A DNA stretch of 64,000 nt from a virus (Duplodnaviria; Heunggongvirae; Uroviricota; Caudoviricetes). Location of the stretch: IMG/VR virus record IMGVR_UViG_2675903278_000002; one strand, written 5' to 3'. Both the position numbers and the translations under genes were made by a program. Numbering within the stretch: the first letter of the stretch is position 1; each line of letters starts with the position of its first letter. This document shows positions 26,469 through 27,161 of this stretch, piece after piece. The notes under the pieces were generated by a model. That model saw only the letters and a program-made list of their open reading frames with translations, made no database searches and was not told the origin of the DNA.

Positions 26469-26963
26469 ATGGCACGTCAAACCTATTTCACTTCTGCAAC
26501 TAAACGTCCTCGTTCACTACGTCAAATTTTGGCCGAATTATTTAGCGGTCGTGTTCTGTCACGTCTTGATGAACTAGAGACTGCCGTTCGGTTGCTGAAT
26601 GAACGTTTAGATAAGCAAGCGTCAGTTGTTGCGAACGTGGGGGCGATTGTTACCTCTGGTTCTTCACGCGAAGCGAAAAGTACACGGCCTTTAGTGAAGG
26701 AGAAAAACAACAAGGACAGTTCGAATGGAAAATTTTCAAAGAAAGAGGCTGAAACCAATGGCCTACGTTCTCATTATAGTTTCACTGGCGACGATAGCCG
26801 TTCCAGCCGGCCAGAGCCTTTTGATGCCGGGTTCATCCATCACCACACCTCCGTCGACGACAATTACCACCACTCCAGTAGAGCGTCCTGTCACTCTGGA
26901 TGGGATGACGGTGGATGCGATACCTCAAGTTCATCCAGTTACTCAGGATCATGCTGTGACTAA
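26469..26963 (+). CDS. hypothetical protein (N-terminal ~95 aa look coding; Ser/His-rich tail overlaps another ORF)
   Basis: 164-aa ORF; C-terminal third is low complexity and overlaps ORF 26758..26976 in another frame. Confidence 0.4.
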   Translation: MARQTYFTSATKRPRSLRQILAELFSGRVLSRLDELETAVRLLNERLDKQASVVANVGAIVTSGSSREAKSTRPLVKEKNNKDSSNGKFSKKEAETNGLRSHYSFTGDDSRSSRPEPFDAGFIHHHTSVDDNYHHSSRASCHSGWDDGGCDTSSSSSYSGSCCD

Positions 26964-26976
26964 GGCGGTTGTATGA
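26758..26976 (+). CDS. hypothetical membrane-anchored Thr/Pro-rich protein (alternative frame)
   Basis: RBS AGAGG 9 nt before ATG; hydrophobic N-terminus; stop overlaps next ATG (ATGA). Confidence 0.3.
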   Translation: MAYVLIIVSLATIAVPAGQSLLMPGSSITTPPSTTITTTPVERPVTLDGMTVDAIPQVHPVTQDHAVTKAVV

Positions 26977-27161
26977 ACTGGTTTTCAAATCACTTTGGAA
27001 AAATTTGGCTGGCAATTCTTGCCCTCATGGCCGCCGGTTGGGTATCGAACATTATAAAACTTGTTTGCTCTGGCGATCTCCAGTTTCAGGCTGGTATGAC
27101 CTTGGCTCGTGTTGTTGGGATTTTTGTTTTTCCAGTTGGTTCGGTACTTGGTTATTTCTGA
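26973..27161 (+). CDS. small membrane protein (2 TM)
   Basis: 62 aa, two hydrophobic helices; translationally coupled to upstream ORF. Confidence 0.35.
   Translation: MNWFSNHFGKIWLAILALMAAGWVSNIIKLVCSGDLQFQAGMTLARVVGIFVFPVGSVLGYF

Follow-up and report, generated by a model that had tools for sequence, protein, structure and literature searches.

A 239-nt same-strand overlap in an SSU5/pHCM2-type phage-plasmid that appears to encode two selected proteins

In a phage-plasmid of Escherichia coli, the same 239 bases most probably give two proteins in two reading frames, both kept by selection. The dual-coding overlap (26725-26963, + strand) is shared by ORF1 (26469-26963, +; 164 aa) and ORF2 (26725-26976, +; 83 aa), the latter in the +1 frame relative to ORF1, and both frames are open across lineages. 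Positions refer to the window, by which we mean the whole 64,000-nt stretch of DNA that was analyzed (IMG/VR record IMGVR_UViG_2675903278_000002). ORF1/ORF2 belongs to an already known class, the same-strand overprinted gene pairs, and the mirrored low complexity of its two products, with (CAC)n His facing (ACC)n Thr and TCN Ser facing CNx Pro, is the usual look of overprinted genes.

Genomic setting of the locus

The window represents a dsDNA phage-plasmid of the SSU5/pHCM2 type, roughly 110 kb in size and 98% identical to phage Cyrano. The cassette formed by ORF1, ORF2 and a third gene, ORF3 (26973-27161, +), is positioned in the early/DNA-metabolism region, away from the lysis cassette, and the adjoining genes are rnhA and TerB/TciA-like genes. 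In Cyrano the locus corresponds to CYRAN_83/84 (79.8-80.5 kb), and the lysis genes encoding holin, endolysin, Rz and Rz1 (CYRAN_22-25, 26.7-28.2 kb) lie ~52 kb from it. RNA-seq of an LF82 (Cyrano) lysogen showed transcription across the ORF1/ORF2 region near background.

ORF1 (phrog_10411; CYRAN_83, SSU5_091) is labelled ‘hypothetical’ in RefSeq, and ORF3 (phrog_6006) corresponds to CYRAN_84 and SSU5_092. ORF2 (phrog_15659) carries no annotation in the RefSeq, Cyrano and SSU5 records inspected and calls for it were seen only in PHROGs and in a small number of GenBank records. In the collections searched, the 83-aa protein is therefore probably missing from the annotation of several hundred clinical Enterobacteriaceae plasmids. 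Searches of Pfam, NCBIfam, PADLOC, PDB (by sequence) and PHROGs returned no match of known function for the proteins of the locus.

Both frames are preserved among relatives

Of 51 distinct orthologous sequences, 49 keep both the ORF1 and the ORF2 frame uninterrupted, and ORF2 always terminates 13 nt beyond ORF1. The two frames are also intact in eight deep lineages, in which ORF1 identity is as low as about 40%; the remote lineages L081, L083, L086, L091 and L092, likewise with both frames intact, were recovered by a profile search. Both frames stay open even in lineages without ORF3, and indels between clades within the overlap are multiples of three. The two-frame layout was found in >200 E. 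coli assemblies (complete plasmids), in relatives from Klebsiella, Salmonella (SSU5, pHCM2), Enterobacter, Cronobacter, Kluyvera and Buttiauxella, and in the isolated phages Cyrano, PhiR41_1 and SSU5. The persistence of both open frames in the orthologues and in the remote lineages exceeds chance. An original prediction, made from the window alone, had offered two real genes overlapping by ~200 nt as one of its alternatives, and it is this alternative that the comparative evidence supports, with an overlap of 239 nt.

Fused, single-frame versions (L060, L077; P0028, P0030, P0031, P0038 and others) are rare: they account for just 2 of the 51 distinct loci and, among roughly 1,500 member sequences, for about 13. 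They result from 1-2-nt indels at differing junctions, and because the junction positions differ we regard them as sporadic indels or assembly errors. Since such alleles exist, the two-frame arrangement is not essential for plasmid maintenance. Recombinants with breakpoints within the overlap were also observed (L066, P0024, P0029).

Substitution patterns indicate constraint on both frames of the overlap

The N-terminal part of ORF1 has normal coding periodicity (dNN/dSN 0.27-0.32), as does ORF3 (0.26-0.53 / 0.11-0.31 / 0.58-0.73). Variability at ORF1 codon positions 1/2/3 was 0.37/0.26/0.57 upstream of the overlap versus 0.38/0.31/0.26 within it. Differences at ORF1-frame four-fold sites fell to 0.18 in the tail, compared with 0.52-0.70 in the N-terminal part of ORF1, rnhA and ORF3, and 8 of 11 such sites were invariant in the overlap versus 4 of 18 comparison sites (p = 0.018). 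Were ORF1 the only gene here, such unusual conservation of its third positions and four-fold sites could not be explained. Inside the overlap the substitution periodicity moves to the ORF2 frame, and by this sequence measure ORF2 is coding.

The ORF1 tail appears to be constrained too, as judged from the abnormal conservation of synonymous sites in ORF2. Among four deep clades, 8 of 17 ORF2 four-fold sites are invariant versus 7 of 60 in flanking genes (p = 0.003), and the invariant sites coincide with the NGLR, SGWD and Cys-Asp-stop motifs of ORF1. In an independent pair of lineages (L083/L092), differences by codon position were 0.20/0.18/0.47 upstream and flat in the overlap (0.17/0.16/0.16), with wobble differences of 0.36 in the downstream TerB gene (Fisher p = 1e-4 to 3e-3). 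The overlap also contains two invariant islands of 13 nt, CCAATGGCCTACG (26755-26767) and TCTGGATGGGATG (26895-26907). Conserved RNA structure was rejected as the cause of these islands (RNAalifold z = -1.25 versus column shuffles), and recent recombination is an unlikely source of the low divergence of the overlap, both flanks being far more diverged in all clade pairs.

OLGenie-like ratios were less telling. For ORF2, dNN/dNS was 0.50-0.53 (z about -3), and for the ORF1 tail dNN/dSN was 0.91-0.94, which is near 1 and not significant. A mock +1 frame in a non-overlapping control already gave 0.62-0.66; the ORF2 ratio is therefore weak evidence and the ORF1-tail ratio uninformative, as the method neither confirms selection on the ORF1 tail nor cleanly parts ORF2 from a mock frame. 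Weight was thus placed on the position-specific and four-fold-site tests rather than on these ratios. Both proteins are mostly disordered by prediction and low in complexity, so amino-acid constraint is weak outside a few motifs.

Predicted products of ORF1, ORF2 and ORF3

ORF1 is preceded by a Shine-Dalgarno (SD) sequence, GGAG (26460-26463, +; read from the sequence), 5 nt 5' of its ATG, and this site is kept as GGA-type purines in the alignment of the leader described below. The protein begins with a basic segment, continues as a long helix (residues 17-69) and ends in a disordered tail rich in Ser, His, Asp and Cys, in which Ser, Asp, Gly and His are abundant; peptides of the tail include SHYSFTGDDSR and PEPFDAGFIHHHTSVDDNYHHSSR. 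In the AlphaFold2 model the helix spans residues 17-69 with block-mean pLDDT of 66-93, peaking at residues 31-50, and residues 67-164 all have pLDDT <50 (about 40 in the tail). A Kyte-Doolittle scan found no hydrophobic or transmembrane (TM) segment in ORF1, the maximum for a 15-residue window being 1.29 and no window reaching 1.6. ORF1 looks like a cytoplasmic, soluble protein composed of a helix and a disordered tail. Three motifs of the tail (NGLR, SGWD and a C-terminal Cys-Asp) are conserved down to about 40% identity; the pattern C-x-SGW(D/N)...Cys-Asp persists in the remote homologues P0044 and P0050 and is weaker in P0058, and the K. oxytoca-type homologue carries HHSHGHHHH.

The +1 frame is open from 26698 to 26976 and contains ATGs at 26725 and 26758. 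The conserved start of ORF2 is ATG 26725 (MENFQRKRLKP...), not 26758, and Met-12, encoded at 26758, is missing in three of eight deep lineages (L081, L083, L092). With a start at 26725 conserved across lineages, the overlap is 239 nt and not about 200. An SD-like AAGGA (26712-26716, +) lies within ORF1, 8 nt 5' of ATG 26725; similarly spaced SD-like purines (AAGGA, AGGGA, AAGGAG, GGAAGG, GGAGAG) precede the ORF2 start in 7 of 7 lineages compared, and the start codon is kept as ATG/GTG. This combination of a conserved ATG/GTG and SD points to a translation-initiation region belonging to ORF2 itself.

By hydropathy, ORF2 has one hydrophobic segment (residues 9-30). Its N-terminus runs from a basic n-region (RKRLK) through a hydrophobic core (residues 12-26, hydropathy 2.55) to P-x-x-Q-[S/A/G], a putative signal-peptidase site, and this layout is common to eight lineages. 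The mature part is rich in Thr, Val and Pro; it includes a stretch dominated by Thr and Pro and a motif, L(D/E)GMxxD, that is conserved. One peptide of ORF2 is PVTLDGMTVDAIPQVHPVTQDHAVTK. AlphaFold2 models the protein as one helix with the rest disordered. ORF2 contains no Cys in the window; Cys occurs sporadically in L008, L081 and L083, never in a lipobox context, and L092 has Tyr instead. From its sequence features ORF2 is probably an exported protein.

ORF3 encodes a 62-aa membrane protein with two TM segments (about residues 8-28 and 40-62, by hydropathy). At the ATGA junction (26973-26976, +) the TGA terminating ORF2 overlaps the ATG from which ORF3 starts; the junction reads GTGA in the Klebsiella AR_0129-type clade. 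ORF1 stops 10 nt 5' of the ORF3 start, and ORF1 and ORF3 share a frame. The ATGA arrangement is consistent with translational coupling of ORF3 to ORF2. ORF3 is optional, being missing in L081, L083, L091 and L092, where TerB directly follows ORF1/ORF2, and weak ORF3 homologues are carried by unrelated Vibrio and Acinetobacter phages.

All of the features that the original prediction had described are present in the sequence: an ORF at 26469-26963 whose Ser/His-rich tail overlaps an ORF in another frame, and an ATGA link to a 62-aa two-TM protein at 26973-27161, where both the four-base overlap and two hydrophobic segments are seen. For ORF2 it had named ATG 26758 with its own ribosome-binding site; the hydrophobic anchor and the Thr/Pro-rich tail hold, and the conserved start, with its SD-like motif, is at 26725. 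Its suggestion that the small membrane proteins could be holin-like is not supported. TM domains are present, but ORF3 ends in ...VGSVLGYF with no charged hydrophilic C-terminal domain, and the tail of ORF2 is Thr/Pro-rich. The neighbours are rnhA and TerB/TciA-like genes, with no endolysin; phrog_6006 and phrog_15659 are listed as ‘unknown function’ and have no Pfam/NCBIfam match, holin families included, and the lysis cassette of Cyrano is distant.

A structured leader and a model for expression

A conserved, structured leader with three hairpins precedes ORF1 (26379-26444, +; RNAalifold and pair counts). The hairpins lie at 26379-26395, at 26396-26410 with an invariant GGA loop, and at 26418-26439, the last being GC-rich and followed by AACTCTTTCT. 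Across 10 lineages, 95.5% of cells were paired and 9 of 18 pairs showed compensatory changes; none of 500 shuffles matched the observed pairing, and slid controls reached 24-41%. A covariance model of the leader matches 37 of 38 related loci, every match ending at the ORF1 ATG. The window holds a single strong copy, the other match being weak and of a generic terminator-like kind (23992-24099). Hairpin 3 was itself flagged as terminator-like, and the sole Rfam match of the leader was to CsrB, a weak one (E = 0.07).

We propose that ribosomes initiating at ATG 26469 would produce ORF1, and that separate ribosomes would initiate within ORF1 at ATG 26725, using the AAGGA at 26712-26716, to give the 83-aa ORF2; no frameshift would be required for making either protein. 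The n-region, the 15-residue hydrophobic core and the small-residue site after Gln-30/Ser-31 of ORF2 would act as a Sec signal peptide or signal anchor, placing its Thr/Pro-rich tail of about 52 aa, with the LDGMxxD motif, in the periplasm. ORF3, where present, would probably be translated by coupling to the overlapping ORF2 stop. Independent initiation, ORF2 export and ORF3 coupling are what we infer from these features, as is any function; our best guess for the latter is that the genes form a small accessory module, associated with the envelope and belonging to the lytic or early programme.

Alternative explanations

It seems unlikely that only ORF2 is functional in 26725-26963, with the useful part of ORF1 confined to its N-terminal 85 or so residues and the tail an unselected read-on. 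The non-significant ratio of the tail (0.91-0.94), its predicted disorder (pLDDT about 40), a composition that mirrors Thr/Pro-rich sequence shifted in frame, and an overlap periodicity that tracks ORF2 would all fit this explanation. However, the ORF1 end point is the same in 8 of 8 lineages, and resampling of synonymous ORF2 codings puts the per-lineage probability of an open ORF1 frame, given the ORF2 protein, at 0.015-0.06 with local codon usage (i.e., 2-6%) or 0.05-0.23 with uniform usage. The product of these probabilities across lineages (4e-11 to 1.5e-7) overstates the significance, the lineages being related. Single-base changes that are silent in ORF2 create an ORF1-frame stop in 2-5% of cases, and none is fixed; a mutation-opportunity estimate, by simple arithmetic from these fractions and the divergences measured between clades, gives only ~4-9 expected stop-creating events (p roughly 0.02 to 1e-4). 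The excess of invariant ORF2 four-fold sites over flanking genes (8/17 vs. 7/60), the flat substitution profile in L083/L092 and the conservation of NGLR, SGWD and the terminal Cys-Asp to about 40% identity also speak against an unselected tail. Moreover, the ORF1 end is unchanged where ORF3 is missing, so the open frame is not kept merely to bring ribosomes to ORF3. The converse, implied by RefSeq and most annotations, is that only ORF1 is a gene and that the +1 ORF is open by chance, owing to a tail poor in Leu, Ile, Val and Met. In resamplings conditioned on the ORF1 tail protein, chance alone does keep the +1 frame open in 19-77% of cases for most lineages, and ORF2 is unannotated in most records; yet the figure for L081 is just 2-3%, within the overlap it is the ORF1 third positions and four-fold sites that vary least (0.18 vs. 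0.52-0.70 in flanking genes), the ATG/GTG, SD and signal-peptide layout are kept in all lineages, and ORF2 stops at a constant position with respect to the ORF3 start. We consider this explanation highly improbable.

The original prediction had also raised a programmed frameshift or a sequencing indel near 26700-26760. A +1 shift in that region would fuse the N-terminal part of ORF1 to the ORF2 frame, yielding a bitopic membrane protein, possibly besides the separate products. The frame relation permits a fused protein of 160-170 aa, for which the internal hydrophobic segment could be a membrane anchor, and fusions exist as database proteins (P0038, P0049, P0052), although these come from 1-2-nt indels with differing junctions. 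Against it, a shift could take place only between the last +1-frame stop and the start codon of ORF2; this interval measures 7-10 codons in L081, L083 and the window sequence, and across lineages the joinable stretch has no more in common than the SD and start codon. Seven lineages show no X_XXY_YYZ heptamer, and there is no conserved in-frame stop, hungry codon or other conserved shift motif. In prfB, about 3 nt separate the stimulatory SD from the shift site, whereas the 8 nt between the SD and ATG of ORF2 is an initiation spacing. With a start and SD of its own for ORF2, the frameshift is very unlikely. That a sequencing or assembly indel in the window split one ancestral gene has next to no probability: indel-bearing versions of the locus do occur in some assemblies, but nothing specific to the window speaks for it, and an identical frame structure is shared by >200 independent, complete plasmids of E. 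coli, by isolated phages and by relatives from several other genera.

Comparison with known gene arrangements

Two genes sharing 239 nt, the reading that we prefer, recall the Rz/Rz1 spanins (embedded in lambda; overlapped in P2 lysB/lysC). In both cases a second gene nested in the +1 frame runs slightly beyond the end of the first; the first gene encodes a protein with a long helix and the nested one a small, Pro/Thr-rich protein with an N-terminal export signal (a predicted one in ORF2), and the pair is inherited as one unit. An i-spanin has an N-terminal TM domain and an o-spanin is a lipoprotein with a lipobox and an invariant Cys. ORF1, in contrast, has no N-terminal TM domain, ORF2 has no lipobox Cys, and the locus is in the DNA-metabolism/early region and not in a lysis cassette, Cyrano already having an annotated holin-endolysin-Rz-Rz1 cassette. 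A spanin identity was rejected on these grounds, and no sequence-family match was found. It is conceivable, though rather improbable, that ORF1 and ORF2 (with ORF3 where present) form an unrecognised phage module that differs from spanins in parts, location and role but has come to share their genetic architecture by convergence. If so, the module could serve the early programme as a device for cytoplasm-to-periplasm signalling or for exclusion, with its partners locked together and co-regulated by the overlap and the three-hairpin, GGA-loop leader.

The ORF1 tail may resemble His/Cys/Asp-rich metal-binding tails such as the SlyD C-terminus, sharing with them a disordered C-terminus with His clusters, Cys pairs and Asp/Gly/Ser; this composition, however, could be no more than a reflection of the Thr/Pro codons in ORF2. 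Frameshift pairs such as the lambda G/GT tail chaperone (-1) and prfB (+1) likewise have two overlapping same-strand frames with a possible N-/C-terminal fusion, but ORF1/ORF2 lacks a conserved shift site and its downstream ORF has its own SD, start and signal layout. Parallels in kind are the overprinted (dual-coding) viral genes, such as phiX174 D/E and A/B/K (reviewed in PMC8227390 and PMC6195259), whose abundance is treated in PMC7017920. Shared features are the same-strand overlap, biased composition, predicted disorder, suppressed synonymous variation in both frames and the taxonomic restriction of one product. Unlike those genes, ORF1/ORF2 resides in a dsDNA phage-plasmid of roughly 110 kb, for which genome compression is no obvious driver.

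Use as a benchmark

The functional significance of ORF1/ORF2 may be small. As an example of same-strand dual coding in a large dsDNA phage-plasmid, the pair is nevertheless clean, well replicated and long (239 nt), and it can be used as a benchmark for overlapping-gene detection; here an OLGenie-type ratio was uninformative and four-fold-site and periodicity tests worked. The two frames can be separated by single-base changes: T26726C abolishes the ATG of ORF2 and leaves the ORF1 protein unchanged (AAT to AAC), and G26898T stops ORF1 at codon 144 (GGA to TGA) and is silent in ORF2 (CTG to CTT).

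Layout and context of the overlapping ORFs

All the features described in the original prediction are found in the sequence. ORF1 (26469-26963, + strand) encodes 164 amino acids, the open stretch of a second ORF, in the +1 frame, covers 26698-26976 and contains ATGs at 26725 and 26758, and ORF3 (26973-27161, 62 aa) is joined to the second by an ATGA junction. Hydropathy analysis gives no membrane segment for ORF1, one for ORF2 (residues 9-30) and two for ORF3. The second ORF had been predicted to start at 26758 with its own RBS; an RBS and ATG of its own are present, but the conserved start is ATG 26725, from which ORF2 (83 aa) reads MENFQRKRLKP..., with AAGGA (26712-26716) 8 nt upstream. 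A similar purine motif and ATG (GTG in one lineage) precede ORF2 in all seven lineages compared, and Met-12 (26758) is absent from 3 of 8 aligned lineages. The overlap with ORF1, estimated earlier at ~200 nt, is thus 239 nt long (26725-26963). ORF1 and ORF3 share a frame (26961-26975), with only the ORF1 stop and three sense codons between them, and read-through of that stop would yield an ORF1-ORF3 fusion; this potential is probably incidental, since ORF3 is missing in some lineages.

SSU5/pHCM2-type E. coli phage-plasmids match the region at 98-99.9% identity, including phage Cyrano (OV696614), PhiR41_1 and many 107-112-kb plasmids; the 212 matched records, nearly all plasmid-borne, occur in 211 of 5,426 complete E. 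coli genomes. ORF1 and ORF3 are "hypothetical proteins" in these records (CYRAN_83/84 in Cyrano, SSU5_091/092 in SSU5), and ORF2 is left out of the annotation of Cyrano, SSU5 and the matching records. PHROGs already lists ORF2, without an assigned function, as phrog_15659 (residues 12-83), and a few GenBank records call it. The three ORFs are preceded by rnhA and followed by TerB/TciA-like and DUF3927/TciB-like genes; in Cyrano the locus lies at 79.8-80.5 kb, amid nucleotide- and DNA-metabolism genes. On two K. oxytoca-type plasmids (loci L091, NZ_CP011594; L092, NZ_CP117483) ORF1 and ORF2 are unlisted in the gene tables with both frames intact, which may reflect an incomplete PLSDB table or a genuine annotation gap.

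Distribution of the gene pair

tblastn with either protein recovers ~680 plasmids from Escherichia, Klebsiella, Enterobacter, Salmonella, Citrobacter and Cronobacter, the distant ones with ~40-55% identity in both frames. The ~90 loci collected for comparison contain 51 distinct sequences of the region, which form four deep clades (26-42% of bases different) plus recombinants. Both ORFs are intact in 49 of the 51, and the ORF2 stop is always 13 nt past the ORF1 stop, forming ATGA or GTGA with the overlapped ORF3 start. The family is narrow: only 20 relatives turned up when 1.8 billion representative proteins were searched with a profile. The remote lineages from this search (P0044/L086, P0050/L081 and P0058/L083), together with L091 and L092, all keep a +1 ORF with the same layout. 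Since ORF3 is absent from L081, L083, L091 and L092, where TerB comes directly next, the conserved core is the ORF1/ORF2 pair. Weak homologues of ORF3 (33-43% identity) occur in unrelated Vibrio, Acinetobacter, Aeromonas and Octadecabacter phages, and ORF3 behaves like a gene for a small membrane protein that moves independently. L066, P0024 and P0029 are natural recombinants of a pHCM2-type ORF1 N-terminal part and an E. coli-type tail, with breakpoints at or inside the overlap, close to the ORF2 start and to SRPEP.

Selection in both frames

By comparative sequence evidence, ORF1 and ORF2 are a genuine and conserved dual-coding pair on the same strand, which has its own structured leader and, as an optional third gene, ORF3 (translational coupling predicted). 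Among clade representatives, variability at ORF1 codon positions 1/2/3 follows the normal pattern upstream of the overlap (0.37/0.26/0.57); within it (0.38/0.31/0.26) the ORF1 wobble position is the least variable, the order expected for the ORF2 frame. Between-clade differences at four-fold sites of the ORF1 frame amount to 0.18 in the tail (the overlapped portion of ORF1), vs. 0.52 in the N-terminal part, 0.62 in rnhA and 0.70 in ORF3, and these sites are invariant at 8 of 11 positions in the tail vs. 4 of 18 in the N-terminal part (p = 0.018). This pattern is impossible for a gene that uses the ORF1 frame alone. A search for conserved RNA structure in the overlap found none to account for the conservation (z = -1.25). 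The substitution pattern, the conserved start, SD and signal-peptide layout and this lack of RNA structure together argue with high confidence that ORF2 is a real gene. That the ORF2 frame is open is no surprise in view of the ORF1 tail (by reverse resampling, it is open by chance in 19-77% of cases in most lineages), so the case for ORF2 rests on the substitution patterns.

Four lines of evidence indicate that the ORF1 tail is also selected, under weaker constraint than ORF2. ORF2 four-fold sites differ at 0.37 vs. 0.52-0.70 in flanking genes, and 8 of 17 are invariant over four clades vs. 7 of 60 (Fisher p = 0.003); the invariant sites lie within a pair of invariant 13-nt islands and at the end of ORF1, which read NGLR, SGWD and Cys-Asp-stop in the ORF1 frame. 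In an independent pair, L083 vs. L092, differences are 0.20/0.18/0.47 in the ORF1-only part and flat in the overlap (0.17/0.16/0.16, no wobble position), with 0.36 at the wobble position of the downstream TerB gene (Fisher p from 1e-4 to 3e-3). When ORF2 is recoded with synonymous codons, the ORF1 frame stays free of stops in only 1.5-6% of trials per lineage under local codon usage and in 5-23% under uniform usage (seven lineages); its openness is hence not a by-product of ORF2, although multiplying the per-lineage probabilities would overstate significance, the lineages being related. Single-base changes silent in ORF2 create an ORF1 stop in 2-5% of cases; by our own conservative arithmetic with the observed divergences, ~4-9 such events are expected and none is observed (p roughly 0.02 to 1e-4). 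The ORF1 tail motif is retained in remote homologues. An OLGenie-like ratio of ~0.9 for the tail, not significant, counts against selection, but we judge it uninformative here because a mock frame in a control region scored 0.62-0.66 by the same method. The case for the tail thus rests on open-frame maintenance and suppressed synonymous change.

Alternative readings of the locus

The original prediction weighed two overlapping genes against a join of the ORF1 N-terminal part to ORF2 by a sequencing indel or programmed frameshift. Single-frame fusions do exist (P0028, P0030, P0031, P0034, P0038, P0039, P0047, P0049, P0052, L060 and L077), but such uninterrupted orthologues, the comparison proposed earlier, are sporadic (2 of 51 distinct loci; ~13 of ~1,500 member sequences) and stem from 1-2-nt indels at differing places, e.g., a 1-nt deletion in L060 and a 2-nt insertion in L077. 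An indel in the window is excluded, because the identical frame structure spans assemblies and genera. For a programmed frameshift only +1 is possible; the joinable stretch is down to 7-10 codons, the SD and start codon are its only shared element, and no slippery heptamer was found in it across lineages. Conservation in both frames and the substitution evidence bear out two overlapping genes, in which ORF2 would be made by independent internal initiation, with no frameshifting.

The suggestion that the small membrane proteins are holin-like runs contrary to both location and defining sequence features, and a spanin reading fails likewise: in Cyrano the annotated holin, endolysin, Rz and Rz1 are CYRAN_22-25, at 26.7-28.2 kb. 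The architecture resembles Rz/Rz1, whereas ORF1/ORF2 lack every other defining spanin feature. The pair is best filed among overprinted phage genes, a known class. Since 61% of dsDNA virus genomes have annotated overlaps >50 nt (PMC7017920), the phenomenon is unsurprising in itself; what makes this case useful is the quality of its evolutionary evidence, the absent annotation and ready-made separation-of-function mutations.

The indel alleles (L060, L077, P0028, P0030, P0031, P0038, P0049 and P0052) join the ORF1 N-terminal part to the ORF2 tail and shorten the free-standing ORF2. Several junctions fall at short homopolymers (TTTT, 26819-26822; an A-run, 26703-26707), and the alleles could reflect either faulty assembly or true loss of function.

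Predicted products, leader and expression

In the AlphaFold2 model of ORF1, residues 17-69 form a helix (block-mean pLDDT up to 93) and residues 67-164 have pLDDT ~40, which indicates a disordered region. In the ORF2 model the only structured part is a helix at the N-terminus (residues 3-24). Conserved in ORF2 are a basic n-region, a hydrophobic core and a P-x-x-Q-[S/A/G] motif, suggesting an export or anchoring signal. The low-complexity tails mirror each other by codon: CAC (His) in ORF1 vs. ACC (Thr) in ORF2, and TCN (Ser) vs. CNx (Pro). None of the three ORFs matched families of known function.

Three hairpins (26379-26395, 26396-26410 and 26418-26439) lie within the 90 nt preceding ORF1. 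Covariation is strong (compensatory changes in 9 of 18 pairs; 95.5% of cells paired), with the observed pairing reached by 0 of 500 shuffles and slid controls at 24-41%. Within the window this leader is unique; of 38 related loci, 37 have it, in each case directly next to the ORF1 start, and they include loci whose upstream gene is not rnhA. The middle-hairpin loop carries an invariant GGA, with a further GGA in the ORF1 SD in most lineages, and the third hairpin is GC-rich and terminator-like. An Rfam search of the leader gave no family match, only a weak CsrB hit (E = 0.07). The leader could be an attenuator/terminator or a CsrA-type translational control site. In L081 (808-864) the called start of P0050, a remote homologue of ORF1, is 18 codons upstream of that implied by the leader alignment, and the N-terminal extension runs through the conserved hairpins; this start is probably miscalled.

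By RNA-seq in LF82, CYRAN_83/84 are not among the lysogeny-expressed genes and are near background in LB; in one condition they rise alongside CYRAN_85/86, not rnhA (PMC9928086). Upstream of rnhA, a 530-nt gap (~25146-25675) without a convincing gene holds a small ORF (25325-25459) equivalent to CYRAN_81, a 44-aa ORF whose transcription in LF82 lysogens exceeds the prophage background ~12-fold (PMC9928086, Table 1 and S1); rather than encoding a protein, it may represent a small RNA. Two hairpins also lie upstream of the dam methylase gene (23992-24075), the second of which (AACGCGCCAGA...TCTGGCGCGTT, then TTTATTT) resembles a strong intrinsic terminator. This suggests that genes of the same-strand cluster are separated by terminators.
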